The notes: a model not told the origin generated them from the letters alone. A stretch of 64,000 nt of DNA from Candidatus Moraniibacteriota bacterium (GCA_016699425.1 CP064975.1:66979-130978), one strand, 5' to 3'; shown: positions 40,587 to 62,835, counted from the stretch's first letter. A program made the numbers and translations.

Positions 40587-40668
40587 AAACAGTGATAGAC
40601 GGAGCAAATGCTGACACCACCCCCTCCGCTGCTTCGACGGGTGTGGGGGTACACTGAGTGCGGCAGCG

Positions 40669-40693
40669 TCATTTGGAGGTCGAACCTCCAAAT
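40669..40693 (+). terminator. 11-bp perfect hairpin downstream of LamG gene
   Basis: CATTTGGAGGT-cga-ACCTCCAAATG; lies within a ~100 nt GC-rich structured spacer. Confidence 0.45.
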
Positions 40694-41071: not shown

Positions 41072-41221
41072 AGTCTTGTTTACGTTGTCTCGGTACGGTC
41101 CGAGTATGTGCGAAGATGCTCGGAAATATATGGGGAAAACAGTGTCGGGACGCGTGAAAGCGTGGTACAATAATACCGATATAGAGCCATGTCTTGACCA
41201 CGAACCGTCACTCCTTTGCGT

Positions 41222-42058
41222 ATGGCACAGCCGCCATCACCCCTCAATCCTTTTCTCGGCAGTCAGTCTCCCCCGATACCGGAAAAGCCAGTCGTCTCGG
41301 CCACGGTGAAAGCTCCCGCCGCGTCTTCGGCGGTGCCGAGAATCGTCCCTGCCTCAAGACCATCCGAACCGAGTCCAGCTGTGAGTGATGTCGCTACGCC
41401 GGCGAGTAAGTGGCGGCATCGGGTAGTGCGACGCAGTCTGATCACTCTCGTCCTCGTCGTGATCATCGCGGGGATCATGTACTGGTGGTTCCGCGATACC
41501 GGGAGTGCACCGATAGTCGATGAGCCAAAGTCGGTCACAGAAGTGAAGGAAGCGACACCGCCCGCACTCATACCAGAGCAAGGGACGCTCGCCCTGCCGG
41601 ATGACAATGCGAATTTCGAAAGTGAGAATTTCAAGGCGGGGGAGATCGTGATCGGAGGCGAGCTGCAGTTCCTTGTCGATGAGGATGAAGTCGGAGCACT
41701 CACGGTAGAGGATATCCGCGGCGAAGCCTTCACTGAGAAAAATAAGCAGGATGTGAAGCTGGTCGTGACTTGGACGACCAACAAGCTCGCTCAGGCATCA
41801 GTCCGCTACTCCAAGGGTATTGGTCAGACCGAGCGGGGAATTGACGAGGAAGACTACAGCTACAACCACAGCGTCATCATCTCGGGTCTCGATCCAGCTT
41901 CGACATATCTCTACACAATCGACGCGAGTGACCGCTATGGCAACCGGGTGAAAAGCGAGCCGCATGCAGTCTTCACCGGCGCGCGGACCGTATCGCTCTT
42001 TGACCTCATCGCGGGGGCGATCGGCGAGGTATTCGGTTGGGCAGTGACGTCTCGTTAG
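41222..42058 (+). CDS. membrane-anchored protein with C-terminal FN3/PAP-N-like beta-sandwich
   Basis: Pro/Ser-rich N-terminus, one TM (LITLVLVVIIAGIMYWWF), and a C-terminal SGLDPASTYLYTIDASDRYGN motif. Confidence 0.6.
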   Translation: MAQPPSPLNPFLGSQSPPIPEKPVVSATVKAPAASSAVPRIVPASRPSEPSPAVSDVATPASKWRHRVVRRSLITLVLVVIIAGIMYWWFRDTGSAPIVDEPKSVTEVKEATPPALIPEQGTLALPDDNANFESENFKAGEIVIGGELQFLVDEDEVGALTVEDIRGEAFTEKNKQDVKLVVTWTTNKLAQASVRYSKGIGQTERGIDEEDYSYNHSVIISGLDPASTYLYTIDASDRYGNRVKSEPHAVFTGARTVSLFDLIAGAIGEVFGWAVTSR

Positions 42059-42231
42059 AGATGCGTATGATACGTTTGCCTGTGAAAAATATCTCAATCC
42101 AGAGTCAGAAAAAATTACCTGAAAAATCGGATGGAACTTCGCCCTCGCTCTAACCGGATGAACAACAAATACCCTCTTGCCAAGATAGTGAAAATGACTG
42201 TATTCCGTGGTATAATTCTCCTATGGCATGA

Positions 42232-44643
42232 ATGTCCGCCATGCACTGGTATGTAAAAAATAAAAACCTAAAAACGCATATATTTCTCCTAGCGATCGCA
42301 TTGGCGACGGGGAGTCTCATTGGTTGGGGATACACTTCCCAATCGGTTTTGGCGCAATCAATAAACCAGATTTCAGTCGCTGTTTCGCTCTTTGACGCCG
42401 AAAGCAAGATAATCACCAACGGCGAGTACGATGTGCGGTTCGCTCTGTACCGGACCGACCGGACGACAGCGGATGCCTATCCCTCGAATGCGGATAATCG
42501 GCTTTGGGAGGAAACCCAGAAAGTGATCGTGAAAAATGGTGTGTTGCGGGCCTTCCTCGGATCAGCGACAGCGCTGCCGGCGAGCCTGAGTTTTGAAAGC
42601 GGGGATTATTATCTCGGTATCCGGGTCGGCACTGATTCGGAAATGGTGCCGCGCAAGAAACTCGGCGCGGTCCCATCTGCTCTCAATTCCCAATTCCTGC
42701 GCGGCAAGACATTCGGCACGAGCGAAGGCAATCTGCTCGTGCTCGACAAGAACGGCAAGGTGAATCTTAAACAGCTGCCCGTGGGGACTGGCAATAACCA
42801 GCTCGTGCGTGGTGACGATGCACGCTTCGGCGATATCCACCAGCAGAACACGGACACAGGGACAGACTCCGAAGTCTTTACGATCGGGAGCGGTACTGGA
42901 CCAACGGGTGCAAACTTCGATCTCGCGGTTTCGAGTTCGAGCACACCGCCCGCAATCCGTTACAATGGGTCGACGCAGAGCTGGCAGGTCTCCAACGATG
43001 GTTCAGCTTTCTCCGACATTTCGACCACGGCCTCCGGCAGTTTCCTCCCGCTGTCGGGTGGGACGATGACGGGGGACATCACCTTCGCTGGGACACAGGC
43101 GTTCACCAATCTCATCGATCTCGGCGCGGATACTGTCGGGAATTATGTCGCGACGATCGCAGGCGGCAATGGTGTCTCGGGTTCGGCCTCGGGCGAAGGT
43201 GTGGCAGCCACGCTCGATATCGACCTCCTCGACAGCACGGATGGGGCGGGTGCGACGTCATCGAACAGCGGCTTGGAATTTAGCGGCGCGGGCTCGGACG
43301 AACTTTCGCTCCTGCAGGGTTGCGCCAATGGTCAGGGCATCTCTTGGAATGATGCGACCAATGTGTGGGAATGTGCGAGCTTTTCCTCGGGTCTCTCGGG
43401 GACAGGGACAGCAGGGAATGTTGCGTACTGGAGCGGGGCGAGTTCACTCGGGAGTGAAGCGCAGCTCAACGTCTCGCGCGGTGGAACTGGAGTAAGTGGA
43501 TCAGCCGCCAGCAATGGATCATTGCTCATCGGCAACGGTACTGGCTATACACTCAATACCCTCGCGGTGGGCAACGGTGTCACGGTCACGAACGGCGCCG
43601 GCACGATCACGCTTGGTCTCGATGTGACGACGACGGGTACGACGATCAATGCTTCATCGAATTCCGGCCTTGAACTCACTGCTGACGGCCTACGGTTGCT
43701 CGGTGGCTGCAGCAACGACCAAGTGTTGTCATGGAACTCGACGCTTGAGACATGGGGTTGCTCCAACAAGACCGGCGGCACGAGCGATTGGACGAGTGCT
43801 GGCTCATTCACATACCTGACGGATACGGCGGATGACCTCGTTGTCGGCGGCTCGACCACGGACACGGGATTTTTCTTTGATGTGTCAGCTTCAACGCTCG
43901 CGTTTGAGGGGACAGCGGCTGATGGTTTCGAAACGACATTGGCGGTCACGAATCCGACCGCTGATCGGACCGTGACGCTGCCGAATGTCACAGGCACGGT
44001 CATCACGACTGGCAACCTGACCGATATCACGGCGGTCGGGACGATTGCTTCGGGCGTGTGGAATGGCACGACGCTCGCGGTGGCAAATGGTGGGACGGGG
44101 GCAACGAGCCTGAACAATCTCATCGCCCTCACCACCGACACCACCGGTAACTACGTCCAGTCCATCACCAACGGTAACGGTCTCACTGGGGGTGCCGCCG
44201 GCAGCGAAGGAGCGACCCTCACCCTCGGCCTCGACCTCCTCGACAGTGCGGATGGCACTGGTTCCACCGCTTCTAACTCTGGTCTCGAATTCCAAGGTGC
44301 TTCATCCAATGAACTCGCCTTGCTTCAGGGGTGTGCAGACAATGAGATTCTCTCCTGGAACAATGCGACCAATGTCTGGCAGTGTGCCACGGTCTCTGGT
44401 GTCGGCGGTATCACGGGAAGCGGAACAAATGGCCAAGTCACCTACTGGACTGGGACGAGTACGCTCGCCGGTGAGAATCAACTCTCTGTCACACGAGGTG
44501 GGACCGGTATCGGTAGCTACACCATCGGTGATCTCCTCTATGCGACGGGTGCCACCACACTCGCTGCTCTCCCCCGATGTCGCGACAGGCAATGTCCTCC
44601 TCTCAGGTGGTATCGGTGTCGCTCCATCTTGGGGCAAAGGTGA
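42232..44643 (+). CDS. giant Gly/Thr/Ser-rich repetitive surface protein, fragment 1 of 4 (N-terminal signal anchor)
   Basis: N-terminal TM, then tail-fibre-like repeats (GTGATSLN..., LLQGCA.N..LSWN...W.C); it ends where two +1 homopolymer insertions occur. Confidence 0.75.
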   Translation: MSAMHWYVKNKNLKTHIFLLAIALATGSLIGWGYTSQSVLAQSINQISVAVSLFDAESKIITNGEYDVRFALYRTDRTTADAYPSNADNRLWEETQKVIVKNGVLRAFLGSATALPASLSFESGDYYLGIRVGTDSEMVPRKKLGAVPSALNSQFLRGKTFGTSEGNLLVLDKNGKVNLKQLPVGTGNNQLVRGDDARFGDIHQQNTDTGTDSEVFTIGSGTGPTGANFDLAVSSSSTPPAIRYNGSTQSWQVSNDGSAFSDISTTASGSFLPLSGGTMTGDITFAGTQAFTNLIDLGADTVGNYVATIAGGNGVSGSASGEGVAATLDIDLLDSTDGAGATSSNSGLEFSGAGSDELSLLQGCANGQGISWNDATNVWECASFSSGLSGTGTAGNVAYWSGASSLGSEAQLNVSRGGTGVSGSAASNGSLLIGNGTGYTLNTLAVGNGVTVTNGAGTITLGLDVTTTGTTINASSNSGLELTADGLRLLGGCSNDQVLSWNSTLETWGCSNKTGGTSDWTSAGSFTYLTDTADDLVVGGSTTDTGFFFDVSASTLAFEGTAADGFETTLAVTNPTADRTVTLPNVTGTVITTGNLTDITAVGTIASGVWNGTTLAVANGGTGATSLNNLIALTTDTTGNYVQSITNGNGLTGGAAGSEGATLTLGLDLLDSADGTGSTASNSGLEFQGASSNELALLQGCADNEILSWNNATNVWQCATVSGVGGITGSGTNGQVTYWTGTSTLAGENQLSVTRGGTGIGSYTIGDLLYATGATTLAALPRCRDRQCPPLRWYRCRSILGQR

Positions 44644-47600
44644 ATCTCACGACTGCGGTCACGGGGACGCTCCCGGTAGCCAACGGTGGAACAGGGGCGA
44701 GCAGTCTCACCGATCTCATCGCTCTCACCACTCATACGACCGGGAACTATGTCGCCACGATTACCAGTGGCAATGGTCTCACGGGTGGCAATGGTGGTTC
44801 GGAAGGGGCAGCATTGACGCTGGGACTTGATCTCCTCGATGCCGATGACTCGACCGGTGCTATCGCGAGCAACTCCGGTCTTGAATTTCAAGGTGCCGGG
44901 AATAATGAACTCACGCTCCTGCAGGGCTGTGCCGATCTCGAAATCTTGGCATGGGACAACACGACCAATGAATGGGAATGTGCCACTGTCTCTGGTGTCG
45001 GTGGACTTTCTGGTTCCGGAATCAATGGCCAGGTCACGTATTGGACCGGTACTTCGACATTATCCTCCGAAGCCCAACTGCATGTCTCCCGAGGGGGTAC
45101 CGGCGTGAATGGTTCGGCCGCCGTCAACGGCTCACTCCTCATCGGTAATGGCACCGGCTATACCCTGACAACATTGACGGATGGTACCGGTGTCTCTATC
45201 ACGGAAGGGTCAGGCACCATCACTATCGCGTCCACACTCGGTACGGATATCAATCTCGCCTCAGCTGAAGTCACGGGGACGCTCCCGGTCGCCAATGGCG
45301 GCACCGGGGCAGCCACCCTCGCGAGTAATGGCGTCCTCTACGGCAATGGTACGGGCATCGTCCAGGTCACCACTGCGGGCACCACCGGTCAATTCCTCGT
45401 CGCCAATGGTTCGGGTGTCCCCACCTTCGTCTCCATGGGTACGGATGCGACACTCGCGGCTTCGGGGGCAATCACGATCGCCGCCAATGCGGTCGCCCTC
45501 ACCACCGACACCACCGGTAACTACGTCCAGTCCATCACCAATGGTAACGGCCTCACCGGGGGTGCCGCTGGCAGTGAAGGGGCGACTCTCACTCTCGGCC
45601 TCGACCTCCTCGACTCCGCCGATGGCACTGGTTCAACCGCTTCTAACTCTGGTCTCGAGTTCCAAGGCGCTTCATCCAATGAACTCACCTTGCTCCAGGG
45701 GTGTGCGAACAATGATGTCTTGGCTTGGGTGGATGCTTCGAATTCGTGGGCCTGCACCTCCGTTGGTGGCGTCGGTGCAGGTGATATCACTGCCATCGGT
45801 GACGCGGTGTCGGGGGATGCGTTTACGGCGAGTGGCACGGCTGGGACGTCGCTCTACTTCTATGATGCGAGCGGTCGCGGGCAACTGACCATTGCGGATC
45901 TGTCTGCTCCGCACACGTATACGCTGCCTGACACAACTGGCACACTTATCACCAATGGTGATACGGGGACGGTGACTGGGACGATGATCACTGACAATAC
46001 CATCGAAGAAGTCGACCTCGAAGCGACGAATGCGGCGACGAATGGCTACATTCTCTCCTATGATTCCGGCACGGGTGGTTTCACCTGGATTTCGAATACC
46101 GGAGGGACGGGATCATCGAAGTGGACAGATTCGGGAGCGATTACCTATCTGACGGATACAACAGATAGTCTCGCCATCGGTGGATCGACATCGAACGCTT
46201 CCAAGTTTTACTTCGATGTCGCGACGGGTAATCAGATTATCTTCGAGGGGACGGGTGCGGATGATGCGAATGAGACATCTCTCATCATCGCCAACCCGAG
46301 CACTGACCGGACGATAACACTCGCTGATCTCTCAGGAACGGTAATCTTGTCGGGACATTCGTTTACGGGCGATGTGACAGCGACCCTTGATTCCGATAAT
46401 TCGACGGCGCTCACTATCGCTGCTGACGCCGTTGCTCTCGGCACCGACACCACCGGCGACTATGTTTCCTCTGCCACCGCCTCGGGTGGTCTCACCCTGA
46501 CTGGGACCGAAGGAGCAAGCTTGGGCATTCTCCTTCAACCCTCAGCTGATGCCCTCTCCGCTACCACGAGCTCAGGCTCCGGTCTCCAACTCCTCGCGAC
46601 GGGACTCACCTTGCTTCAGGGCTGTGCCAACAATGAAGTGCTCTCGTGGAATGAAACCTCGGATACATGGGGGTGTTCATCCGTCTCTGGTGTTGGTGGT
46701 GTGACGGGGAGTGGCGCCAACAATCAGGTGGCGTATTGGACAGGAACATCGTCTCTTGCTGGTGAGAATCAACTGAATGTCTCCCGCGGGGGGACGGGCG
46801 TCAATGGCAGCGCTGCCGCCAATGGTTCGCTCCTCATCGGTAATGGTACCGGCTATACGCTTGCCACGCTGACCGATGGCACCGGTATCAATATCACTGA
46901 GGCTGCGGGATCGATTACGGTTGCGGTAACTTCTGCTGTTCCGACTTCTATCGTCAATGATACGAACGTGACTGGATCCATCTCCAGCAATGTCCTCACG
47001 CTCGGGTGGACAGGGCAATTGTCAGTCGCTCGGGGTGGCACAGGCGCTTCTACTTTGACGAGTAACGGCGTTCTCTACGGCAATGGATCGAGCGCGGTCG
47101 CTGCGACGGCGGCTGGTACTAGTGCTCAGTTGCTCGTCGCCAATGGTTCGGGTGTCCCCACCTTCGTCTCCATGTCAGGCGATGTCACTATCACGAACGC
47201 TGGTGTTTCCGCAATCGGTGCAAATACCGTCGCCCTCACCACCGACACCACCGGTAACTACGTCCAGTCCATCACCAACGGTAACGGTCTCACTGGGGGT
47301 GCCGCCGGCAGCGAAGGAGCGACCCTCACCCTCGGCCTCGACCTCCTCGACAGTGCGGATGGCACTGGTTCCACCGCTTCTAACTCTGGTCTCGAATTCC
47401 AAGGTGCTTCATCCAATGAACTCGCCTTGCTTCAGGGGTGTGCAGACAATGAGATTCTCTCCTGGAACAATGCGACCAATGTCTGGCAGTGTGCCACGGT
47501 CTCTGGTGTCGGCGGTATCACGGGAAGCGGAACAAATGGCCAAGTCACCTACTGGACTGGGACGAGTACGCTCGCCGGTGAGAATCAACTCTCTGTCACA

Positions 47601-50600
47601 CGAGGTGGGACCGGACTCGGTAGCTACACTATCGGTGATCTCCTCTATGCGACGGGTGCCACCACACTCGCTGCTCTCCCCGATGTCGCGACAGGCAATG
47701 TCCTCCTCTCAGGTGGTATCGGTGTCGCTCCATCTTGGGGCAAGGTGAATCTCACGACTGCGGTCACGGGGACGCTCCCGGTAGCCAACGGTGGAACAGG
47801 GGCGAGCAGTCTCACCGATCTCATCGCTCTCACCACTCATACGACCGGGAACTATGTCGCCACGATTACCAGTGGCAATGGTCTCAATGGTTCCGCGAGT
47901 AGCGAAGGCGCCACTCCCACCCTCGCCCTCGGAGCTTTGACCGCCGACTGGAATCAGACCGGAGCATTTGATTTCTCCCTCAACAATGCTTCATCAGAAC
48001 TGAAGATCCTTGAATCAGCCGGGGCGGCGTTTTACGGCGTGCTAGATGTGGGGGACTTGTCGGGAAGTGACAAGACATATACTTTCCCCAATGCAAGTGG
48101 GACAGTCGCATTGCTCGATGGTGGGCAGACATTCACGAATGCGACGTGGAATGGAACAACGATTGGAGTCGCCAATGGCGGCACCGGCGCCACTACCCTC
48201 ACCCCGAATGGCGTCCTCTACGGCAATGGTACGGGCATCGTCCAGGTCACCACCGCGGGCACCACCGGTCAATTCCTCGTCGCCAATGGCAGTGGAGTCC
48301 CCACCTTTGTTTCCATGAGTAGTGATGCTACGCTCGCTGCTTCCGGTGCCGTGACGATCGCCGCCAATGCGGTCGCCCTTGGTACCGACACCACCGGCGA
48401 CTATGTTTCCTCCGCCACCGCTTCGGGTGGTCTCACCCTGACCGGGACCGAAGGCGGCTCGCTGGGCATTCTCCTCCAACCCTCCGCTGATGCCCTCTCC
48501 GCTACCACGAGCTCAGGCTCTGGCCTCCAACTCCTCGCGACGGGTCTCACCTTGCTTCAGGGCTGTGCCAACAATGAGGTCTTAGCCTGGAATGAAACGA
48601 CGGATGTCTGGAGTTGTGCCAGTATTGCCGGTACGGGTGGAGTCACCGGCACCGGAGCCACAGGTCAAGTCACCTACTGGACGGGCACGAGTACGGTCGC
48701 AGGGGAGAATCAACTCTCAGTGAGTAGAGGAGGGACGGGAATCGGGAGTTATGCTGTTGGTGACGTGATCTATGCCAGCGGGACAAGTACTTTGTCGAAG
48801 CTCACAGCTGGTTCAGATGGCCAGGTCCTCATCCTCGCTGGTGGCGTCCCGACATGGAATACCATCGGGGGCGGAGGCGGGGGTGGCGTGACCGCCGACT
48901 CTCTCGACTTCACCGAGTTCCAAGACACCCTCGATCTCGATGCTGCTCTCACCTTGAATCAAACCACCAATACTTGGAGCCAGTCCTTCACCGGGACCAC
49001 GACTACAGGCTTTGCGTATACGGCGACGTCTCTCACTACGGGAAGTGCTCTCAACCTCACCACGACCAATACCGCCACGACCAATACCGCTCTCTCGGCA
49101 GCTCAGTTCAATCTGACCAATGCTCAAGCCACCAATGCCAACACCAATGGTGTTACTGGTCTGGCGGTGAACTTCACCAACAATCCGTCTGCCGCGGGCA
49201 ATAGTGAGTACGCCGTCCGGATCCAGAATCAATCAACAAGTAATACCACGGACAATGCGCTCGCCGCTCTCCTCCTCCTCGACAACGCCGATACCACCGC
49301 GACTGGTACAACTATTGTCACCGATGCCATCGCCATCACCAATAGTGGAGGATCAAACTTCACTAACTTCCTCAATACCCCAACGCTCGACATCAGTGCC
49401 GCTGGCGCGATCACTGGAGCCACCGGCATCACTTCCTCCGGCAACATCACCTTCTCTGGTCTCACGCCAAACTCTTTCCTCTACTCGGGCACCGGGGGTC
49501 TCCTCACCACGACCACGGCTCCCACCAATGGCCAACTTCTCATCGGTTCCACTGGTGTGGCACCCGTAGCTGCAGCTCTGACCCAAGGGACGGGCATCAC
49601 GGTCACCAATGGCGCGGGGAGTATCACGGTGGCGAGTACCCTCGGCACCAGTGTTGACCTCACCACCGAAGTCACGGGGACGCTCCCGGTCGCCAATGGC
49701 GGCACCGGCGCCACTACCCTCACCCCGAATGGCGTCCTCTACGGCAATGGTACGGGCATCGTCCAGGTCACCACCGCGGGCACCACCGGTCAATTCCTCG
49801 TCGCCAATGGCAGTGGAGTCCCCACCTTTGTTTCCATGAGTAGTGATGCTACGCTCGCTGCTTCCGGTGCCGTGACGATCGCCGCCAATGCGGTCGCCCT
49901 TGGTACCGACACCACCGGCGACTATGTTTCCTCCGCCACCGCTTCGGGTGGTCTCACCCTGACCGGGACCGAAGGCGGCTCGCTGGGCATTCTCCTCCAA
50001 CCCTCCGCTGATGCCCTCTCCGCTACCACGAGCTCAGGCTCTGGCCTCCAACTCCTCGCGACGGGTCTCACCTTGCTTCAGGGCTGTGCGAACAATGAGG
50101 TCTTAGCCTGGAATGAAACGACGGATGTCTGGAGTTGTGCCAGTATTGCCGGTACGGGTGGAGTCACCGGCACCGGAGCCACAGGTCAAGTCACCTACTG
50201 GACGGGCACGAGTACGGTCGCGGGTGAGAATCAATTGAATGTCTCTCGGGGCGGCACCGGGGTGGATGGCTCAGCCGTCACCAATGGGCAGCTCCTCATC
50301 GGGCACGATGCGAACAACAACTTCTCCCTCGCGGCTCTGACCCAAGGGACGGGTATCACCGTCACCAATGGCGCGGGGAGTATCACGGTGGCGTCCACCC
50401 TCGGCACCAGTGTTGACCTCACCACCGAAGTCACCGGGACGCTCCCGGTCGGAAACGGCGGCACCGGGGCAGCCACCCTCGCGAGTAATGGCGTCCTCTA
50501 CGGCAATGGTACGGGCATCGTCCAGGTCACCACCGCGGGCACCACCGGTCAATTCCTCGTCGCCAATGGCAGTGGAGTCCCCACTTTTGTTTCCATGAGT

Positions 50601-51098
50601 AGTGATGCCACGCTCGCTGCTTCCGGTGCCGTGACGATCGCCGCCAATGCGGTCGCCCTTGGTACCGACACCACCGGCGACTATGTTTCCTCCGCCACCG
50701 CTTCGGGTGGTCTCACCCTGACCGGGACCGAAGGCGGCTCGCTGGGCATTCTCCTCCAACCCTCCGCTGATGCCCTCTCCGCTACCACGAGCTCAGGCTC
50801 TGGCCTCCAACTCCTCGCGACGGGTCTCACCTTGCTTCAGGGCTGTGCGAACAATGAGGTCTTAGCCTGGAATGAAACGACGGATGTCTGGAGTTGTGCC
50901 AGTATTGCCGGTACGGGTGGAGTCACCGGCACCGGAGCCACAGGTCAAGTCACCTACTGGACGGGCACGAGTACGGTCGCGGGTGAGAATCAATTGAATG
51001 TCTCTCGGGGCGGCACCGGGGTGGATGGCTCAGCCGTCACCAATGGGCAGCTCCTCATCGGGCACGATGCGAACAACAACTTCTCCTCGCGGCTCTGA
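44577..51098 (+). CDS. giant repetitive surface protein, fragment 2 of 4
   Basis: Continuous with fragment 1 once the C5 and A3 run lengths are set to those of the identical downstream copy; it ends at a 1-nt-short C-run in a repeat junction. Confidence 0.8.
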   Translation: MSRQAMSSSQVVSVSLHLGAKVNLTTAVTGTLPVANGGTGASSLTDLIALTTHTTGNYVATITSGNGLTGGNGGSEGAALTLGLDLLDADDSTGAIASNSGLEFQGAGNNELTLLQGCADLEILAWDNTTNEWECATVSGVGGLSGSGINGQVTYWTGTSTLSSEAQLHVSRGGTGVNGSAAVNGSLLIGNGTGYTLTTLTDGTGVSITEGSGTITIASTLGTDINLASAEVTGTLPVANGGTGAATLASNGVLYGNGTGIVQVTTAGTTGQFLVANGSGVPTFVSMGTDATLAASGAITIAANAVALTTDTTGNYVQSITNGNGLTGGAAGSEGATLTLGLDLLDSADGTGSTASNSGLEFQGASSNELTLLQGCANNDVLAWVDASNSWACTSVGGVGAGDITAIGDAVSGDAFTASGTAGTSLYFYDASGRGQLTIADLSAPHTYTLPDTTGTLITNGDTGTVTGTMITDNTIEEVDLEATNAATNGYILSYDSGTGGFTWISNTGGTGSSKWTDSGAITYLTDTTDSLAIGGSTSNASKFYFDVATGNQIIFEGTGADDANETSLIIANPSTDRTITLADLSGTVILSGHSFTGDVTATLDSDNSTALTIAADAVALGTDTTGDYVSSATASGGLTLTGTEGASLGILLQPSADALSATTSSGSGLQLLATGLTLLQGCANNEVLSWNETSDTWGCSSVSGVGGVTGSGANNQVAYWTGTSSLAGENQLNVSRGGTGVNGSAAANGSLLIGNGTGYTLATLTDGTGINITEAAGSITVAVTSAVPTSIVNDTNVTGSISSNVLTLGWTGQLSVARGGTGASTLTSNGVLYGNGSSAVAATAAGTSAQLLVANGSGVPTFVSMSGDVTITNAGVSAIGANTVALTTDTTGNYVQSITNGNGLTGGAAGSEGATLTLGLDLLDSADGTGSTASNSGLEFQGASSNELALLQGCADNEILSWNNATNVWQCATVSGVGGITGSGTNGQVTYWTGTSTLAGENQLSVTRGGTGLGSYTIGDLLYATGATTLAALPDVATGNVLLSGGIGVAPSWGKVNLTTAVTGTLPVANGGTGASSLTDLIALTTHTTGNYVATITSGNGLNGSASSEGATPTLALGALTADWNQTGAFDFSLNNASSELKILESAGAAFYGVLDVGDLSGSDKTYTFPNASGTVALLDGGQTFTNATWNGTTIGVANGGTGATTLTPNGVLYGNGTGIVQVTTAGTTGQFLVANGSGVPTFVSMSSDATLAASGAVTIAANAVALGTDTTGDYVSSATASGGLTLTGTEGGSLGILLQPSADALSATTSSGSGLQLLATGLTLLQGCANNEVLAWNETTDVWSCASIAGTGGVTGTGATGQVTYWTGTSTVAGENQLSVSRGGTGIGSYAVGDVIYASGTSTLSKLTAGSDGQVLILAGGVPTWNTIGGGGGGGVTADSLDFTEFQDTLDLDAALTLNQTTNTWSQSFTGTTTTGFAYTATSLTTGSALNLTTTNTATTNTALSAAQFNLTNAQATNANTNGVTGLAVNFTNNPSAAGNSEYAVRIQNQSTSNTTDNALAALLLLDNADTTATGTTIVTDAIAITNSGGSNFTNFLNTPTLDISAAGAITGATGITSSGNITFSGLTPNSFLYSGTGGLLTTTTAPTNGQLLIGSTGVAPVAAALTQGTGITVTNGAGSITVASTLGTSVDLTTEVTGTLPVANGGTGATTLTPNGVLYGNGTGIVQVTTAGTTGQFLVANGSGVPTFVSMSSDATLAASGAVTIAANAVALGTDTTGDYVSSATASGGLTLTGTEGGSLGILLQPSADALSATTSSGSGLQLLATGLTLLQGCANNEVLAWNETTDVWSCASIAGTGGVTGTGATGQVTYWTGTSTVAGENQLNVSRGGTGVDGSAVTNGQLLIGHDANNNFSLAALTQGTGITVTNGAGSITVASTLGTSVDLTTEVTGTLPVGNGGTGAATLASNGVLYGNGTGIVQVTTAGTTGQFLVANGSGVPTFVSMSSDATLAASGAVTIAANAVALGTDTTGDYVSSATASGGLTLTGTEGGSLGILLQPSADALSATTSSGSGLQLLATGLTLLQGCANNEVLAWNETTDVWSCASIAGTGGVTGTGATGQVTYWTGTSTVAGENQLNVSRGGTGVDGSAVTNGQLLIGHDANNNFSSRL

Positions 51099-52040
51099 CC
51101 CAAGGGACGGGTATCACCGTCACCAATGGCGCGGGGAGTATCACGGTGGCGTCCACCCTCGGCACCAGTGTTGACCTCACCACCGAAGTCACCGGGACGC
51201 TCCCGGTCGGAAACGGCGGCACCGGGGCAGCCACCCTCGCGAGTAATGGCGTCCTCTACGGCAATGGTACGGGCATCGTCCAGGTCACCACCGCGGGCAC
51301 CACCGGTCAATTCCTCGTCGCCAATGGCAGTGGAGTCCCCACTTTTGTTTCCATGAGTAGTGATGCCACGCTCGCTGCTTCCGGTGCCGTGACGATCGCC
51401 GCCAATGCGGTCGCCCTTGGTACCGACACCACCGGCGACTATGTTTCCTCCGCCACCGCTTCGGGTGGTCTCACCCTGACCGGGACCGAAGGCGGCTCGC
51501 TGGGCATCCTCCTCCAACCCTCCGCTGATGCCCTCTCCGCTACCACGAGCTCAGGCTCTGGCCTCCAACTCCTCGCGACGGGTCTCACCTTGCTTCAGGG
51601 CTGTGCGAACAATGAGGTCTTAGCCTGGAATGAAACGACGGATGTCTGGAGTTGTGCCAGTATTGCCGGTACGGGTGGAGTCACCGGCACCGGAGCCACA
51701 GGTCAAGTCACCTACTGGACGGGCACGAGTACGGTCGCGGGTGAGAATCAATTGAATGTCTCTCGGGGCGGCACCGGGGTGGATGGCTCAGCCGTCACCA
51801 ATGGGCAGCTTCTCATCGGTCACGATGCCAACAACAATTTCTCCTCGCGGCTCTGACCCAAGGGACGGGTATCACCGTCACCAATGGCGCGGGGAGTATC
51901 ACGGTGGCGTCCACCCTCGGCACCAGTGTTGACCTCACCACCGAAGTCACCGGGACGCTCCCGGTCGGAAACGGCGGCACCGGGGCAGCCACCCTCGCGA
52001 GTAATGGCGTCCTCTACGGCAATGGTACGGGCATCGTCCA
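49577..52040 (+). repeat. tandem near-identical ~758-bp coding repeats (3 full units + partial 4th)
   Basis: Units start at ~49577, 50335, 51093 and 51851 (GCTCTGACCCAAGGGACGGG...). Confidence 0.85.
51146..51856 (+). CDS. giant repetitive surface protein, fragment 3 of 4 (one repeat unit)
   Basis: Identical to the previous unit; bounded by the same CC-versus-CCC junction defect on both sides. Confidence 0.7.
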   Translation: MASTLGTSVDLTTEVTGTLPVGNGGTGAATLASNGVLYGNGTGIVQVTTAGTTGQFLVANGSGVPTFVSMSSDATLAASGAVTIAANAVALGTDTTGDYVSSATASGGLTLTGTEGGSLGILLQPSADALSATTSSGSGLQLLATGLTLLQGCANNEVLAWNETTDVWSCASIAGTGGVTGTGATGQVTYWTGTSTVAGENQLNVSRGGTGVDGSAVTNGQLLIGHDANNNFSSRL

Positions 52041-55000
52041 GGTCACCACCGCGGGCACCACCGGTCAATTCCTCGTCGCCAATGGTTCCGGGGTCCCGAC
52101 CTTTGTCTCGCTGAGTAGCGATGTCACGATCAGTAATGCAGGGGTTGCCACCATCGCCGCCGATGCCGTCGCTCTCACCACCGACACGACGGGGAACTAT
52201 GTCGCCAATGTTGCGAATGGCAACGGCATCACTGGAGGCAGTGCTGGATCTGAAGGGGCTTCCCTCACCCTCACCCTTGATCTCCTCGACTCCGCCGATG
52301 GCACGGGTTCTACCTCCTCTAACTCTGGCCTCGAGTTCCAAGGTGCGTCCTCCAATGAGCTCGCCCTCCTTCAGGGGTGTGCCGACAATGAAATCCTCTC
52401 TTGGAACAATACGACCAATGTCTGGCAGTGTGCCACCGTCAGTGGTGTCGGAGGCATCTCAGGCACCGGCACATCGGGTCACGTCGCCTTCTGGACTGGC
52501 ACCTCTTCCCTTTCCTCGGAAGCCCAACTCTCAGTCAGTCGGGGTGGCACCGGCCTCGACGGCTCAGCGGCGGCCAATGGCACCCTCCTCATCGGTAATG
52601 GTACAGGCTACACGCTCGCTACCTTGACCGACGGCACCGGCATCAGTATCACCGAAGGCGCGGGCACGATCACGGTCGCGAGTACCCTCGGCACTTCCAT
52701 CGCTGCGGGCGAAGTCGACGCCGACTCCCTCGACTTCACCGAATTCCAAGACACCCTCGACCTCGATGCGGCTCTCACCTTGAACCAAACCACCAATACC
52801 TGGGCACAGACCTTCACCGGCACAACGACCACGGGCTTTGCGTATACGGCCACCTCGCTCACCACCGGGAGTGCCCTCAACCTGACGACGACGAATACCG
52901 CCACCGCCAACACCGCCCTCACTCCGGTCAGCTTCAACCTGACCAATGCCCAATCCACCCTCGCCAACACCAATGGTGTCACGGGCCTGGCGGTCAACTT
53001 CACCAACAATCCATCTGTCGCCGGCAACAGCGAGTACGCCGTCCGCATCCAGAATCAAGACACAAACAATACGACCGACAATGCTCTCTCTGCCCTCCTC
53101 CTCCTCGACAATGCGGATACGACGACATCCGGCACGACCATCGTCACCGATGCCATCGCTATCACCAACAGTGGGGGATCAAACTTCACCACTTTCCTCA
53201 ATACCCCAACCCTCGACATCAGTGCCGCCGGAGCGATCACGGGCGCGACTGGCATCACCTCCTCCGGCAATATCACCTTCTCTAGTCTCACGGCCAACAG
53301 CTTCCTCTACTCCGGTACGGGTGGCCTCCTCACCACGACCAGTGCTCCCACCAATGGTCAACTCCTCATCGGCAGTACGGGTGTGGCTCCCGTAGCGGCC
53401 GCTCTGACTCAAGGCGCTGGCATCACCGTCACGAATGGCGCCGGGAGTATCACCATCGCCTCGACTTTGGGGACGAGTGTGGACGGGAGTGAGATCACCG
53501 ATAACACCGTCGAGGAAGTCGATCTCGAGGTAACCAATGCGCCGACGGGCGGCTATGTGCTGACCTATGATGCCGGTACGGGCGGCTTCACCTGGGTCGA
53601 TGCGGGCGGTCTCGGCAATTCGAAGTGGACCGATTCGGGTACGCTCACGTATCTCACGCAGACATCTGACGATGTTGCTTTCGGCGGCTCGACCACGACC
53701 TCGGCGCGTTTCGTTTTCGATGTCACCACCGGCAATCAAATCCTCTTTGAGGGCACCGGCGCGGATGATGCGAATGAAACGACACTCGTCATCACCAATC
53801 CGACTGCCGACCGGACGATCACCCTGCCGAATCTGACTGGTACCGTCGCCACCATCGATGGGGGACAGACGTTCACAAGCGCGACCTGGAACGGCACAGC
53901 TATCAGCGCTCAATACGGTGGCACGGGTCTCGACGGTTCAGCCGCGGCCAATGGCACGCTTCTCATCGGTAATGGCTCAGGCTACACCCTCGCCACCCTC
54001 ACCGACGGTACCGGTATCACTATTTCTGAAGGCGCAGGGAGTATCACCATCGCCTCGACCCTCGGTACCTCGGTTGATCTCGCCAGTGAAGTCACCGGGA
54101 CACTCCCTGTCGGGAATGGCGGCACCGGCGCCACCACCTTCACGAGTAACGGCGTCCTCTATGGCAATGGCACCGGTGCCGTCCAAGTCACTGCCGCTGG
54201 CACCAGTGCTCAACTTCTCGTGGCCAATGGCTCCGGGGTCCCGACCTTTGTCACCCTCTCGAGTGATGCAACCATCTCCAATGCCGGTGTCCTTACCGTG
54301 GCGGCCGATGCCGTCGCCCTCACCACCGACACCACCGGCAACTATGTCGCCAATGCCCAGACGAGTGTACTGACTGGTCTCACGGGCGGCTCCGCGGGGA
54401 GTGAAGGGGCGTCCCTCACCCTCGGCCTCGATTACTCGCAAGCCCTCACCGGCGATGTCGGCCTCGCGGCCAATGCCGGTGTCTTCGGTCAATCTGGCTT
54501 TGCCTTTGAGGGGAGTACAGCCAATACGATTGAGACCTACCTCGTCATCAGCGACCCGACGACGACGGACAAAACGATCACTTTCCCGGACGCTTCAGGC
54601 ACGGTTGCGGTCTCGGGATCGGGTGGTCTCTCTGTCTCGGCGCTTGGGGACATTACTTGTTCCACCTGTGTCGTATCAGGAGGAACATTGTTCACAGCGG
54701 CGGGCACTTCAGGTTCCAATCAGACCATCGCTCAAGGCGACACCCTGACGATCGCTGCGGGCACGGGTATCACCACAACGGGTGGAGCAACGGATACGAT
54801 TACTATTGCGAGTACGCTCGGGACTTCTATCTCCGCTGGAGAAGTCGACGCCGACTCCCTCGACTTCACCGAGTTCCAAGACACCCTCGACCTCGATGCG
54901 GCCCTCACCCTGAACCAAACCACCAATACCTGGGCACAGACCTTCACCGGCACAACGACCACGGGCTTTGCGTATACGGCTGACGCTCTCACCTCTGGCT

Positions 55001-58000
55001 CTGCCCTCACCCTCGCTTCTGCCGCCGCCGCCCTCACCGGGAGCCTGGAGACCATCACTCTCTCCGGTAGTAACGCTGCCAATACCGGCTCCCTCCTCGA
55101 CCTCCAGAACACGGGTACCGCCAATGCCAACACCTCCCTCCTCATCCAGCACAATGCCACCGGCACCGGCAACCTCGCCTTCCGCGTGAATGATGTGGCG
55201 AGTGACACCTCCCCCTTCGTCATTGATGGGACAGGGAATGTGGGGATCGGGACGGCGGCACCGAGTCTTCCGCTGCACGTCTCACGAAGCACGGGGGGTA
55301 CGTATAACAAGTTAGCCGGATTGTATGTTCCAGACATAACGACGGGTCAGTATGTGGAAGCCCCAATCGGTAGGAGCGAGACGGTACGCAATAGGGCAAG
55401 TTGGTCATTTCTCTATGATGGAGATGGCAGTGCGAATAATGCGATGGGGCTGCTTTTCTACGGGGATTCGTCTGCACGTATTACTGCGCTCGCCTCGGGG
55501 AATTTCGGTATCGGCGATACCTCTCCTGCTTCACTCTTTACGGTCGGAGATGGAGATGCCTTCCAAGTGAATTCAACCGGCGCGATTGTGGCTGCCACCG
55601 GCATCATCTCGAGCGGCACCATCACCTTCAGCGGGTTCACGAGTAATGGCGGTGTCTTATATACCAACGGTTCCGGTACTTTGGCTCAGGCGACGGCAGG
55701 GACGAGCACCCAGGTGCTTCTCGGTGGCGCGACCCCGAGTTTCGGTACTATCGGCGCCTCCTCCGTCACCGCCGACTCCCTCGACTTCACCGAATTCCAA
55801 GACACCCTCGACCTCGATGCCAACCTCACCCTGAATCAAACGACCAATACCTGGGCACAGTCGTTCACGGGCACAACGACCACAGGCTTTGCGTATACGG
55901 CGGATGCACTGACTTCGGGATATGCTGAGACGCTCAATGTGAACGGTGCAGCCGTTCTCACCACTGGCGGTGCTCTCAACATCGATGGTCCGACCGGGGC
56001 GGCGACGATGAATACCACTACGGGCCTCCTTAATATCTCCTCGACCGGGGCCATCACGAACTCCACCACGGGCGCGGGGTCCGGCTCCCTCTTCCAGGTG
56101 ACCGGCAACGGAGCCATCACCCCGACCCTCGCCTCGATCTCAGATACCTCGGTCATGACGACGACCGGCAAGCTCCTCGATCTAACGGCTGATGCGGCCA
56201 CCACTACAACTGGCCTCCTCACTATGAATGCGGCTGGTTTGACCACTGGCTACGCTCAGAATATTAACGTGAATGGCGCCGCGGTCCTCACCTCGGGCGG
56301 GGCGATCAATATCGTCGGTCCGACGGGAGCAGCAGCTCAGGCGGCAGGCGCGCTCCTCAAGATCACTACGACGGGCGCAGTCACAGGAACAGCCGGTACG
56401 GGCAACTCGCTCCAGGTGACGAGTGGCACGGTTACGGGAACAGTGGCTTCCATCACAGATGCTGCTGTGATGACGACGACGGGCTCTCTCCTCACTCTTA
56501 CAGGTAACTCCGCGACGACCACAACGGGTCTCTTGCAAGTGAATGCCAATGCCCTCACCTCCGGCTCGGCCGTGAACATCGCCTCCTCCTCCGTCGCCTT
56601 CACCGGCTCCCTCGAATCCATCACCCTCTCTGGCTCCAATGCCGCCAATACCGGCAACCTCCTCCTCATCGCCGATACCGGGGCCCTCAATACCACCACC
56701 TCCTTCAAAGTCACCGCCAATGGTGCGGCTACTCAAGTTGCCGCCCTGATCGAAAACACCGGCTCCGGTACGAGTTTCCGCGTCAATGATGTCGCTAGTG
56801 ACACCGACCCCTTCCTCATTGATGCCTCGGGTCAGGTCGGGATCGGGGACGCCACCCCCAACACAATTCTGGATGTCCTCTCCTCTGGAGCAGCGGACAC
56901 TATCTTTACTCTCGCCAATACCAATGCCGGTGACTATGACCCCGTCGTCAAGTTTGAACTGACTGAAGGCACCCCCCTCTTCACCCTCGGCATCGATGAC
57001 TCTGACTCGGACAAGTTCAAGATCTACTCGGGTGATGGCCTCGCCAGTGGGGATGAGTTTGTCATTGACGCGAGCGGCACCACCACCATCGCTAACCTCA
57101 ACCTGGGCGCTACCTCCTTTGATGAGAACGCGGGAGCAGTGACCTGGATCGATATGCCGGTGACGAGTGCGGCGACTTCCGGGACCGTCGAGAGCTACAC
57201 CGCGGCCATCGATGGGACGAGCTTCCTCACGGTGTACGCGCAGTCGAACGGTTCGGGCGGTCTTGATACAGCGCAGTCCGCAGTGAAATCCGACGTCGAG
57301 CTCGATGCTACTGTCGACGGCTTGGCTACCAAGGTCAATGCTGGAGCCTGCAGCGATACGACTTTCACGCGTGACACCAACGGTACGATCTGTGTCGATT
57401 CCACCAACGGTCGCATCTATTTCCGCTACGGTGGCGCTTGGCACTACTCTGCCCAGACGGCTGGCTTTCAGATCCCGAGCTATGAAACGGCCCCTTTGAG
57501 TAAACTTACCAGTGACGCTGAGACCGAGTTAGAAAACGCGCTGCCCTTCGATACGACCAATCATCCAGAGTACCTCACTCAAAGACTTCAGGCGGGTGAA
57601 TTCCTCATCCCGTATGTGGATGAGTATCTCGAGGATGGTGCGGTCCACGGCCTGTACGCTCGCTTCGGTGATGTGAAGAGCAAGCTTTTCGGTGAGGAAC
57701 AGCAGCAGATCGCTGATCTCTCCCTCCAGACAACAGCGAATATCACGACGCTTTCCGAACTCCAGACGAGTGTCGACGAACAGCTCTTGCTCGCGAGTAC
57801 AAACCTGACGGCTTTCGCCACAAAGGATACCGAGATCGATGCGAAGCTCGCCGAACACGATACGTACTTCGCTCGTGACCTCGCCCGGCTCGATACACTC
57901 GATACATTGACTGCACAAATCGCACTCGACCAGAACACGCTCGCGGCCAATCTTACCAGTATCCAGTCCGATATGGTGACGCTCACGGCACAGGTGGGGA

Positions 58001-58461
58001 CGCTGACCGAATTCTTCAACGCCTTCGATCTCGGCAATATGATCGCCAAGGATGAGCTCGGTAATGTTGATCTCCTCGGTGGGGCACTCCGTGCTAAGTC
58101 GCTGGCGACTGGCGGAATTACGATTGAAGTATCAGATGCAGAGGCACCAACTATCGGGACGGCGACGGTATTGCCTGTGGTGACGGATACGGATGGTGAT
58201 GGCAAAGATGATGAGACCGGTTCGGACGGACGAAGTATCGAGATCCGGACCAAGGCGATGATCCCGATGGTGAACGGCTCGCGTATCTTCACGAGTTTCA
58301 AAGGCAATCCGAATGCCTTTAGCTGGGTCGAAAAGGTGCGTGACGGGGACGGGGACTATGTTGGGTTCAAGATTCGGCTCTCGGAAAAGGTCGATGAGGC
58401 GGTAAAAGTTGACTGGTGGCTAATCGAACAAAAAGATACATTCTCCGCAGCGACACCATAG
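51904..58461 (+). CDS. giant repetitive surface protein, fragment 4 of 4 (C-terminal, includes non-repetitive C-terminal domain)
   Basis: Repeats continue to ~57.2 kb, followed by a unique ~400 aa C-terminal domain. Confidence 0.8.
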   Translation: MASTLGTSVDLTTEVTGTLPVGNGGTGAATLASNGVLYGNGTGIVQVTTAGTTGQFLVANGSGVPTFVSLSSDVTISNAGVATIAADAVALTTDTTGNYVANVANGNGITGGSAGSEGASLTLTLDLLDSADGTGSTSSNSGLEFQGASSNELALLQGCADNEILSWNNTTNVWQCATVSGVGGISGTGTSGHVAFWTGTSSLSSEAQLSVSRGGTGLDGSAAANGTLLIGNGTGYTLATLTDGTGISITEGAGTITVASTLGTSIAAGEVDADSLDFTEFQDTLDLDAALTLNQTTNTWAQTFTGTTTTGFAYTATSLTTGSALNLTTTNTATANTALTPVSFNLTNAQSTLANTNGVTGLAVNFTNNPSVAGNSEYAVRIQNQDTNNTTDNALSALLLLDNADTTTSGTTIVTDAIAITNSGGSNFTTFLNTPTLDISAAGAITGATGITSSGNITFSSLTANSFLYSGTGGLLTTTSAPTNGQLLIGSTGVAPVAAALTQGAGITVTNGAGSITIASTLGTSVDGSEITDNTVEEVDLEVTNAPTGGYVLTYDAGTGGFTWVDAGGLGNSKWTDSGTLTYLTQTSDDVAFGGSTTTSARFVFDVTTGNQILFEGTGADDANETTLVITNPTADRTITLPNLTGTVATIDGGQTFTSATWNGTAISAQYGGTGLDGSAAANGTLLIGNGSGYTLATLTDGTGITISEGAGSITIASTLGTSVDLASEVTGTLPVGNGGTGATTFTSNGVLYGNGTGAVQVTAAGTSAQLLVANGSGVPTFVTLSSDATISNAGVLTVAADAVALTTDTTGNYVANAQTSVLTGLTGGSAGSEGASLTLGLDYSQALTGDVGLAANAGVFGQSGFAFEGSTANTIETYLVISDPTTTDKTITFPDASGTVAVSGSGGLSVSALGDITCSTCVVSGGTLFTAAGTSGSNQTIAQGDTLTIAAGTGITTTGGATDTITIASTLGTSISAGEVDADSLDFTEFQDTLDLDAALTLNQTTNTWAQTFTGTTTTGFAYTADALTSGSALTLASAAAALTGSLETITLSGSNAANTGSLLDLQNTGTANANTSLLIQHNATGTGNLAFRVNDVASDTSPFVIDGTGNVGIGTAAPSLPLHVSRSTGGTYNKLAGLYVPDITTGQYVEAPIGRSETVRNRASWSFLYDGDGSANNAMGLLFYGDSSARITALASGNFGIGDTSPASLFTVGDGDAFQVNSTGAIVAATGIISSGTITFSGFTSNGGVLYTNGSGTLAQATAGTSTQVLLGGATPSFGTIGASSVTADSLDFTEFQDTLDLDANLTLNQTTNTWAQSFTGTTTTGFAYTADALTSGYAETLNVNGAAVLTTGGALNIDGPTGAATMNTTTGLLNISSTGAITNSTTGAGSGSLFQVTGNGAITPTLASISDTSVMTTTGKLLDLTADAATTTTGLLTMNAAGLTTGYAQNINVNGAAVLTSGGAINIVGPTGAAAQAAGALLKITTTGAVTGTAGTGNSLQVTSGTVTGTVASITDAAVMTTTGSLLTLTGNSATTTTGLLQVNANALTSGSAVNIASSSVAFTGSLESITLSGSNAANTGNLLLIADTGALNTTTSFKVTANGAATQVAALIENTGSGTSFRVNDVASDTDPFLIDASGQVGIGDATPNTILDVLSSGAADTIFTLANTNAGDYDPVVKFELTEGTPLFTLGIDDSDSDKFKIYSGDGLASGDEFVIDASGTTTIANLNLGATSFDENAGAVTWIDMPVTSAATSGTVESYTAAIDGTSFLTVYAQSNGSGGLDTAQSAVKSDVELDATVDGLATKVNAGACSDTTFTRDTNGTICVDSTNGRIYFRYGGAWHYSAQTAGFQIPSYETAPLSKLTSDAETELENALPFDTTNHPEYLTQRLQAGEFLIPYVDEYLEDGAVHGLYARFGDVKSKLFGEEQQQIADLSLQTTANITTLSELQTSVDEQLLLASTNLTAFATKDTEIDAKLAEHDTYFARDLARLDTLDTLTAQIALDQNTLAANLTSIQSDMVTLTAQVGTLTEFFNAFDLGNMIAKDELGNVDLLGGALRAKSLATGGITIEVSDAEAPTIGTATVLPVVTDTDGDGKDDETGSDGRSIEIRTKAMIPMVNGSRIFTSFKGNPNAFSWVEKVRDGDGDYVGFKIRLSEKVDEAVKVDWWLIEQKDTFSAATP

Positions 58462-58921
58462 GAAAATATATATGGATCAAATCAATCGATCACCGTAAAG
58501 AAAAAAAGCAAGCCGAGCTCTCGGGAGGGCTCGGCCAGGCGCGGGATAGTCATGTCTTGGGAAGGGGTGGAAGCACGAACACTCCTCCTCTCCCAAGACA
58601 GGATCATACCACCTGTCTAAACTTCAGGAAGTATAGTCATTAAAACTCCTCCTGAAGTGAACCGACATTCCGCACGAAGCGCTTTTTGAGAAGCGCTTTT
58701 TGCGTTACACCGTATGATAGAGGAAGTGGTCACCCTTTGGCAAACGCGCTGCGGATTTTCTGACGAGAAACACAGTCGATCGGTGGCCGTACGATGGGCG
58801 TATATTCGATGGCACCTGACGATCATGATCGAGGGCTCTTTTGGTGATTTTGGCTTTCTTGCGTCGTCATTTGGGGTGGCGTATAATAGCGTCATTACCG
58901 TATAACCTAAACTATTGCGCT

Positions 58922-61495: not shown

Positions 61496-61940
61496 GGTGG
61501 GGTAAAGCGGAGAGGGGAGAATGAGGAAAATGCTATGCCCACCTCTAGCCTCTTTCGAAGAGCTTATCGTCTGGCAACGATCGATGGAACTTGCTGGGGC
61601 CGTTTATTTGGGTACAGAAGCACTGCCAAAATCGGAACAGTATGGTTTGATGAAGTCAGATGTGCCGTTCTGCAGTTTCTATATCCTTCCAATATTGCTG
61701 AAGGCTATATAAAGGAAGGGACTGGGTGAGTATGTCTACTTCTTGTCTGTCGCCGATGCTTCGGCAGCGGAACTTGAAACTCAAATACGCCTGGTCTGTG
61801 GTATTTATCCGGATATGAGTCTGAAGCGATCACTTGCCCTTCTGGATGAGGTACAGAAACTGTTAACAGTTATGATCAAAAAACTGAAAGCGAAATCAGC
61901 TCACCCCTAAACGTTCGCCGCTCTGCATTTTCCGACCAAT

Positions 61941-62255
61941 ATGTTCAGACCTATCATAGGCAGTATCATTTTCAGTAGCACTCTCTTTCCGAGGAGCGTC
62001 TTCGCCGGCGTGATCGATGAAGCCCAACCTCTGTCGGTTGGGTTGGCCAAGATCCTTGACTTTTTATTGTCAATCATCGGTGTAGTTGCTATCATTGGAT
62101 TAGTGATTGCGGGGCTCTTGTATTTCTTCGCGGCGGGTGACATGCGTCAGATCGCCCTCGCCAAGAAAGCGACGCTCGCGGCCATCACCGGCATCGTCAT
62201 CGCGCTCGGGGGCTATGTCCTCATCCGGACGATTGCGACGTTTGTCGCTGGTTGA
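61941..62255 (+). CDS. TrbC/VirB2-like pilin family protein (paralog 1)
   Basis: Signal peptide plus two TM helices separated by LLYFFAAGDMRQIALAKKA. Confidence 0.6.
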   Translation: MFRPIIGSIIFSSTLFPRSVFAGVIDEAQPLSVGLAKILDFLLSIIGVVAIIGLVIAGLLYFFAAGDMRQIALAKKATLAAITGIVIALGGYVLIRTIATFVAG

Positions 62256-62318
62256 ACACAAAAATAAAAAATCCTTGTCAGTCAGACTGACGAGAGAAAA
62301 GAAAGGGGGTGAGAGGTT

Positions 62319-62699: not shown

Positions 62700-62835
62700 T
62701 GTTCTTTTCGATCGAAAAGAGAAAGGCAATCCCGCCAGAGCGGGGTTGTTTTCTTTTCATCCGGACTGGGGGTGTACAGACGATGCTCATGTAGTGGTAT
62801 ACTAGAAGGGAGGCTAAATAAGCTAACCGTATTCG

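Follow-up and report, generated by a model that had tools for sequence, protein, structure and literature searches.

The window analyzed here, a 64-kb stretch (64,000 nucleotides) of the Candidatus Moraniibacteriota genome CP064975, carries at positions 42232-58461 a highly repetitive locus that GenBank annotates as four unrelated hypothetical proteins (IPJ68_00530 to IPJ68_00545) and that is better read as one surface protein of ~5,400 aa. Four long open reading frames (ORFs) follow one another there in frames 0, 2, 1, and 0 (all coordinates are positions in the window and refer to the + strand unless stated). ORF1 (42232-44643, frame 0, 803 aa; GenBank QQR78760.1, IPJ68_00530, in which the GenBank start corresponds to Met4) encodes a putative signal anchor (aa ~10-33, nt ~42259-42330), a conserved N-terminal domain, and the first repeat modules, and its final 22 codons are an out-of-frame read-through. 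ORF2 (44577-51098, frame 2, open from 44532, 2,173 aa) comprises mosaic repeat modules followed by the tandem units U1 and U2. ORF3 (51146-51856, frame 1, open from 50987, 236 aa; IPJ68_00540) is a single tandem unit stranded between two -1 sites, and ORF4 (51904-58461, frame 0, open from 51745, 2,185 aa; IPJ68_00545) adds more repeat modules and a unique C-terminal region. When two extra bases are deleted and two Cs are restored, the locus becomes a single reading frame of 16,230 nt, i.e., 5,409 codons plus a stop, without any internal stop in the corrected codons, and a stop-free run of this length cannot be explained by chance. The corrected gene is among the largest in the 1.2-Mb genome and occupies ~1.3% of it. 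The original prediction, made on the same DNA, had described four consecutive repeat-sharing + strand ORFs, their fusion into one continuous ORF once the runs were corrected, and a product that starts with a signal anchor and ends in a unique C-terminal domain, all of which agrees with the locus as we find it.

The signals for expression are concentrated at the 5' end of the locus. A promoter-like site composed of GTGAAA, a 17-nt spacer, and TATAAT with an extended -10 TG lies at 42188-42216, just 5' of the ORF1 start codon, and is the sole + strand site of this kind immediately 5' of a candidate start codon; the other + strand promoter-like match (42044-42071) falls in the 3' end of the upstream gene. 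At all three junctions the stop-free stretches overlap by 112 nt (44532-44643, 50987-51098, and 51745-51856), and every one of them amounts formally to a -1 shift, an arrangement that would suit programmed -1 ribosomal frameshifting. We give almost no credence to this explanation or to its variant of four separately translated proteins. By inspection, the first overlap has no slippery heptamer of the X XXY YYZ type, the overlaps at junctions 1 and 2 are not homologous, and the homologs match the corrected reading residue for residue rather than the shifted one. Separate translation is further opposed by the lack of signal peptides and of promoter-like sites in front of ORF2, ORF3, and ORF4, and no start context was found before ORF2.

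Each of the four breaks changes the length of a short homopolymer by +/-1, and all lie inside ~3.6 kb of at least 99% identical repeat in the 64-kb window. The first two lie in repeat copy A (44123-44781, ~659 nt), which has a clean in-frame sister in copy B (47230-47886). At site 1 (44571-44575), copy A presents a run of five Cs where copy B (47678) and the relative L004 have four, and at site 2 (44636-44638) it presents three As where both have two. The two insertions had been recognized in the original prediction with the correct run lengths but with shifted positions (44578 and 44631), and the 640-bp pair that it had taken as otherwise identical also differs by three substitutions (44508, 44509, and 44523). 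With the frame corrected, copies A and B are spaced by 3,108 nt, which corresponds to 1,036 codons. The other two breaks belong to a tandem array of four ~253-codon units (49567-52600), composed of U1 (49567-50325), U2 (50326-51084), U3 (51085-51842), and U4 (51843-52600), with periods of 759, 758, and 758 nt between the junction C runs; Tandem Repeats Finder missed this array, as its maximum period was 500. The junction sequence is TTCTCCCTCG at 50326-50328, the U1/U2 junction, but TTCTCCTCG at site 3 (51085-51086) and at site 4 (51843-51844, the U3/U4 junction), so that CC stands in place of CCC exactly as had been predicted. The U1/U2 and U2/U3 junctions have perfectly identical flanks, which extend over 475 nt on the upstream side and 421 nt on the downstream side. 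Five substitutions and one indel separate U2 from U3, and U4 has diverged. Across the four sites, the sister copies are identical over 47-475 nt on either side of the break, and each repeat family keeps a clean copy, namely copy B and the U1/U2 junction. The predicted read-through peptide is ...LAALPDVATGNVLL... in copy A and ...NNNFSLAALTQG... at all tandem junctions.

The window derives from the circular metagenome-assembled genome (MAG) EsbW_18-Q3-R4-48_MAXAC.278 (CP064975, 1,217,328 bp), classified as Patescibacteria; Paceibacteria_A; Moranbacterales; UBA1568, in agreement with the episymbiotic type of host that had been proposed from the sequence. The genome was assembled with CANU from Nanopore reads and polished with Racon, twice with medaka 0.6.5, and with one Illumina Racon round, at a coverage of 9.79x Illumina and 18.38x Nanopore, and its CheckM strain heterogeneity is 100 (Singleton et al. 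2021, PMC8012365, Supplementary Data 3). It has been reported that the errors remaining in long-read assemblies are mainly in homopolymer length, and that short-read polishers leave such errors in repeats owing to unreliable read alignment there (Polypolish paper, PMC8812927). We consider it probable that 42232-58461 is one intact surface-fiber gene of 5,409 residues and that its four breaks are leftover Nanopore homopolymer-length consensus errors. Correct short reads would have mapped best to the clean sister copy of each family, and the erroneous copy would have been left unpolished because its near-identical correct sister attracted them. The locus has in common with the residual errors of hybrid-polished Nanopore assemblies the +/-1 homopolymer changes, their confinement to near-identical repeats, the presence of a clean copy per family, and the low short-read depth, and no feature sets it apart from that pattern. 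The two indels against three substitutions between copies A and B represent a sequencing-error spectrum and not a mutational one, given that an indel-to-substitution ratio of 2:3 far exceeds normal mutational spectra. A comparable lesion was found upstream, where a LamG gene (37109-38287 plus 38046-40586) is split at a run of five Gs (38090-38094); deleting one G yields an ORF of 1,158 aa, and the relative L003 has a single-ORF LamG gene of 1,043 aa in the same position. We regard this split as at least one more assembly error of the same type as those in the giant gene.

The comparison with relatives gave independent views of the same sites. L004 is an independent MAG, which we take to be Illumina-built from an accession series matching MEGAHIT 'ilm_asm' assemblies, and it aligns with 42164-44781 at 93.2% identity, the only two gaps in the alignment being the two extra bases; at sites 1 and 2 it reads CTCTCCCCGATG and GGGGCAAGGTG (C4 and A2). 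The L004 protein P0244 and the 83%-identical P0002 are in frame over both sites (...TTLAALPDVATGNVLLSGGIGVAPSWGKVNLTTAVTG...), and across the equivalent of the tandem-unit junction P0026 reads ...LIGHDANNNFSLATLT... (also given as ...IGHDANNNFSLATL...). Single-ORF relatives with the same N- and C-terminal domains comprise P0139 (2,908 aa), P0114 (2,923 aa), P0157 (3,186 aa), and P0126 (4,205 aa). The estimates of omega were 0.056 for ORF1 (777 codons), 0.036 for the ORF2 sequence after copy B in comparison with L004 (33 synonymous and 4 nonsynonymous changes), and 0.107 for the last 250 codons of ORF4 in comparison with L005. These values indicate strong purifying selection wherever the DNA of a relative could be compared, including segments downstream of the breaks.

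Several observations weigh against reading the locus as an intact fiber gene with consensus errors. Sites 3 and 4 carry the same deletion, which the duplication of a truly frameshifted unit would also give. The U1/U2 junction is correct in the same context, and the error is therefore not strictly systematic. The housekeeping genes in the remaining ~48 kb of the window are free of frameshifts, so that the breaks cluster in genes for surface proteins. Additionally, the matches from fold searches with the giant protein all lie above E 1e-3, and the monomer model of its repeat unit is poor. The first of these points would suit real and fixed frameshifts, under which the giant gene was inactivated very recently, only an anchored stub of ~800 aa is made, and the rest is decaying. 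The deposited sequence does have four frame breaks, reduced genomes commonly lose or vary their large surface genes, and the neighboring LamG surface gene is also broken, in a region that is dispensable in relatives. We nevertheless hold this explanation to be unlikely. Past the first break, ~4,600 codons contain no stop, larger deletion, or other lesion, and selection there shows no relaxation, with omega values of 0.036 and 0.107, so that the marks of a pseudogene are absent. Four independent inactivating indels without substitution decay would be unparsimonious, the indel-to-substitution ratio of the sister copies lies above normal mutational spectra, the type and location of the lesions are those expected of Nanopore consensus error at 9.8x/18x, and the relatives are in frame under strong purifying selection.

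The proteins P0244 and P0002 also bear on whether the number of modules varies. In both, the left flank of copy A passes through the repeat directly into the right flank of copy B, and the 3,108-nt in-frame A-B segment (including 44782-47229) is lacking or collapsed, which reflects either real module-number variation or the short-read collapse of a ~650-nt repeat. If the variation is real, it could speak for a contingency locus in which homopolymer slippage and repeat recombination switch the fiber on and off or change its length, the consensus then representing an off-phase or a mixture of alleles. The strain heterogeneity of 100 and the net frame shift of zero summed over the four indels would fit such a locus. 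We judge it distinctly improbable. A contingency locus would call for a long homopolymer or a short tandem tract, usually of at least 7 units, in the 5' coding region or promoter, and known contingency tracts usually span 7 nt or more, but each of the four runs here measures just 2-5 nt. Furthermore, the four sites would have to be coordinated, the net-zero shift is functionally meaningless because a stop is reached 7-70 nt after each frameshift, and the apparent deletion variant could itself come from the short-read collapse. The real repeat-number and frame variation that the original prediction had allowed for is accordingly hinted at in its copy-number part, by the segment lacking or collapsed in relatives, while its frame part finds no support.

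A related explanation holds that some or all of the breaks are real and serve a system of modular variation, in which the N-terminal product stays anchored and recombination among near-identical modules reshuffles or restores the distal fiber. It draws on the A-B segment that relatives may have lost and on the 5' part of the gene, which is less diverged from L004 and L006 than most of its flanks are. If true, it would provide an episymbiont with rapid switching of host-attachment specificity, but we attach very little probability to it. The intact gene with consensus errors, which the original prediction had preferred in the form of an assembly artefact, is the reading favored by the low-coverage Nanopore source, the clean sister copies, the in-frame Illumina-built relatives, and the intact orthologs. 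The earlier wording of a gene mis-assembled in its repeats is apt as to an artefact in near-identical repeats, and it fails as to mis-joined repeats, in whose place stand unpolished homopolymer consensus errors.

The difficulty of assembling this gene extends to its family. In L001 (8014-18249) and L002 (819-24065), both long-read-style assemblies, the orthologous locus consists of 5-9 overlapping ORFs in alternating frames; L001 has other fragmented genes as well. Thus, three long-read-style assemblies (the window, L001, and L002) break the gene by frameshifts, and in nine out of nine short-read species-representative loci found in the GTDB genome scan the contig ends inside the giant gene. 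The family is therefore systematically misrepresented by assemblies, either through contig ends or through frameshift fragmentation, and surveys that look at adhesins or at protein length in Patescibacteria will under-count such genes.

Turning to the encoded protein, the corrected sequence is composed of 14.7% Gly, 16.7% Thr, 11.8% Ala, and 9.7% Ser. Its N-terminus is Lys-rich and then hydrophobic (MSAMHWYVKNKNLKTHIFLLAIALATGSLIGWG...VLAQS, aa 10-33), and it is followed by an N-terminal domain (aa ~43-300) that is 48-68% identical in relatives and then by ~4,700 residues of mosaic Gly/Thr-rich modules. Among these we counted 23 GGTG, 12 TDTTGNYV, 12 SNSGLE/SGSGLQ, 12 LLxGC...W...W.C, and 4 DSLDFTEFQDTLDLDA motifs. 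All 28 Cys residues are locally paired, 12 of the pairs being of the C-x16-C type, which argues for an extracellular, disulfide-stapled protein. The combination of a putative signal anchor with paired Cys is that expected, at the sequence level, of a secreted or membrane-anchored surface protein.

Scanning of all segments against Pfam and NCBIfam produced no model over the repeats, and the hits to TGF_beta_GS, Kelch_2, Phage_TTP_2, Gryzun, and YgdI were spurious and sub-threshold. The 'tail fiber protein' profile PHROG 31660 matched three stretches of ORF4 aa 1-999 (E 8.3e-14) and ORF1 (E 6.8e-07); as the match covers ~80 aa of the 182-position profile, the similarity is at the level of the module only. 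A search with the 253-aa unit matched 4,108 representative proteins, 104 of them at E <= 1e-30, and these included single ORFs of 4,000-7,185 aa. In the PDB sequence search, the repeat unit had no match, and the C-terminus had only a coiled-coil-type match to reovirus sigma-1 (E 0.04). The monomer of the 253-aa unit was modeled poorly by AlphaFold (pLDDT 56.8); a poor monomer model is compatible with an obligate oligomer and proves nothing.

The C-terminal end was more amenable to modeling. For the last 499 residues (29-sequence alignment), AlphaFold was confident only in a ~90-residue helix and in the terminal beta domain. The predicted helix (57751-58023, pLDDT ~90) is continuous and conserved in relatives, and we interpret it as a putative coiled-coil stalk. 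It precedes a predicted beta-sandwich tip domain of ~115 residues (58087-58431, pLDDT ~88-92), for which Foldseek returned no match at E <= 1e-3. The best matches, which are not significant, were a K1-lyase C-terminal domain protein in BFVD (1.7e-3) and the tailspike receptor-binding domain of PDB 7eea (4.4e-2), and the top ranks of both lists were occupied by phage tailspike and tail-fiber C-terminal domains, K1-lyase C-terminal domains, and H-type lectins (TMt 0.41-0.49). The homolog P0269 weakly matches PF24146 (K1-lyase_C) at E 0.0096, short of the cut-off. The tail-fiber-like character ascribed to the repeats in the original prediction is in line with the PHROG 31660 match and with these top ranks, whose E values stay above 1e-3. 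Peptidase_S74 (PF13884) gave no match at E <= 0.1 in the window protein, in which the stretch that aligns with the S74 segment of P0263 shows no conservation, and the giant protein therefore does not belong to the S74 family. In relatives, the domain precedes the helix; it occurs in P0263 and P0269 and at the orthologous loci L001 and L002, and does not occur in the closest C-terminal homologs of the window protein.

From this anatomy, the protein would be exported by the Sec pathway and retained in the membrane through its N-terminal signal anchor. The shuffled Gly/Thr/Ser/Asn-rich modules would build a long beta-rich fiber, probably oligomeric and probably as a trimer, with a C-x16-C disulfide stapling each module. 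The coiled-coil stalk would then carry a small lectin-like beta-sandwich tip that may bind a surface structure, probably a glycan, on the host or partner cell. Because the fold matches lie above E 1e-3 and the repeat model is poor, fiber architecture, oligomeric state, and ligand are here what we infer rather than what the searches return. The repeats make the gene recombinogenic, and the number of modules therefore probably varies between strains. By analogy, the protein is a plausible host-attachment fiber made from parts resembling those of phage tail fibers, which bears on how ultra-small episymbionts recognize their partners and is nothing unexpected for the group. In the literature, we found nothing specific on a described giant fiber of Moranbacteria.

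The genomic neighborhood follows a synteny conserved in Moranbacterales, which runs through FolD, tRNA-Leu, ParA, ParB, a variable LamG region, a ~277-aa fn3-like protein, the giant gene, a TPR protein, and T4SS-pilin-like small genes. No phage genes were found near the giant gene, and a prophage origin, considered on account of the tail-fiber similarity, was rejected in view of the synteny and the housekeeping-gene context. The upstream neighbor p277 (41216-42058, ~277 aa) is membrane-anchored with an fn3/Pur_ac_phosph_N-like domain, and lies directly 5' of the giant gene in L002, L003, and L004 as well, which makes it a possible conserved partner of the giant protein. The LamG gene codes for a Laminin_G_3 multi-domain surface protein, and its G5 lesion does not lie in a near-identical repeat. 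The entire LamG region (37027-40673) is missing between ParB and p277 in L004 and L006. In L003 (1921-8314), the LamG gene adjoins a diversity-generating retroelement (bAvd, RVT_1 reverse transcriptase, and Lcl_C-domain targets), an element that the window lacks. On the 3' side of the giant gene, the gene for a TPR protein (884 aa) and several small T4SS_pilin-like genes in a row (58841-63700) are syntenic with L005 2299-7554, and another T4SS_pilin plus fn3 protein lies at 26538-28853; together, these genes form a cell-surface gene neighborhood.

The divergence from the L004/L006 lineage is uneven along this region. The 5' 2.6 kb of the giant gene (42164-44781) are 92-93% identical to that lineage, and the flanking genes are 77-81% identical. 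The synonymous divergence (dS) from L004/L006 amounts to 0.27 in the giant gene and to 0.86 in its immediate upstream neighbor; it reaches 1.0-1.2 in FolD and BacA but 0.32 in ParB, and the switch in divergence falls in the intergenic 42049-42164. This sequence pattern suggests a recent exchange of the adhesin gene between lineages. Elsewhere in the window, the editing domain of the leucyl-tRNA synthetase ORF (29046-31910, 954 aa) is followed by an inserted NUDIX hydrolase domain (aa 387-510), and the ATP synthase operon contains, between its genes for the gamma and beta subunits, an ORF6N/Rha-like gene of the phage-regulator type (22378-22962).

In comparison with known systems, the locus is likened to a phage tail fiber fused to a membrane anchor, and its product falls among the giant repeat proteins of Patescibacteria, a class that has been poorly described. 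The giant protein has in common with phage tail fibers the short beta-strand modules LPVANGGTGA..L..NG.LYGNGTG that match PHROG 31660, and with tail fibers and tailspikes the putative coiled-coil stalk followed by a small C-terminal beta domain, whose best fold matches, although not significant, are of the tail-fiber/tailspike kind. The likeness extends to its orthologs, which carry PF13884 and one of which weakly matches PF24146. Unlike phage fibers, the giant gene is chromosomal, in conserved synteny and with no phage genes nearby, and its product has an N-terminal signal anchor in place of a baseplate-attachment domain, is ~5-10 times longer, and differs from those fibers that have a Peptidase_S74 chaperone by the absence of S74.

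The resemblance to the giant surface proteins of the candidate phyla radiation (CPR)/Patescibacteria and of other ultra-small or predatory bacteria, which are uncharacterized and go by 'hypothetical' or 'beta strand repeat-containing' protein, concerns the repeats themselves. The 253-aa unit recurs in single ORFs of up to 7,185 aa, and the C-x16-C module LLxGC...W...W.C is found in P0116, P0124, P0120, and others. A role in mediating symbiont-host contact has been proposed for large surface proteins, Cys-rich ones among them, of the ultra-small putative symbiont Ca. 'H. crystalense' (PMC6792436). A good many of the other giants (P0124, P0116, P0128, and P0138) start with a cytoplasmic MerR-type helix-turn-helix (HTH) and a transmembrane helix, whereas the window protein has a signal anchor only. 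A DNA-binding domain such as the MerR-type HTH on an extracellular fiber of several thousand residues, as in P0116, P0124, P0128, and P0138, is an odd fusion in itself. Within these giants, the subfamily of the window protein is distinguished by N- and C-terminal domains of its own, which are common to P0139, P0114, P0126, and P0157.

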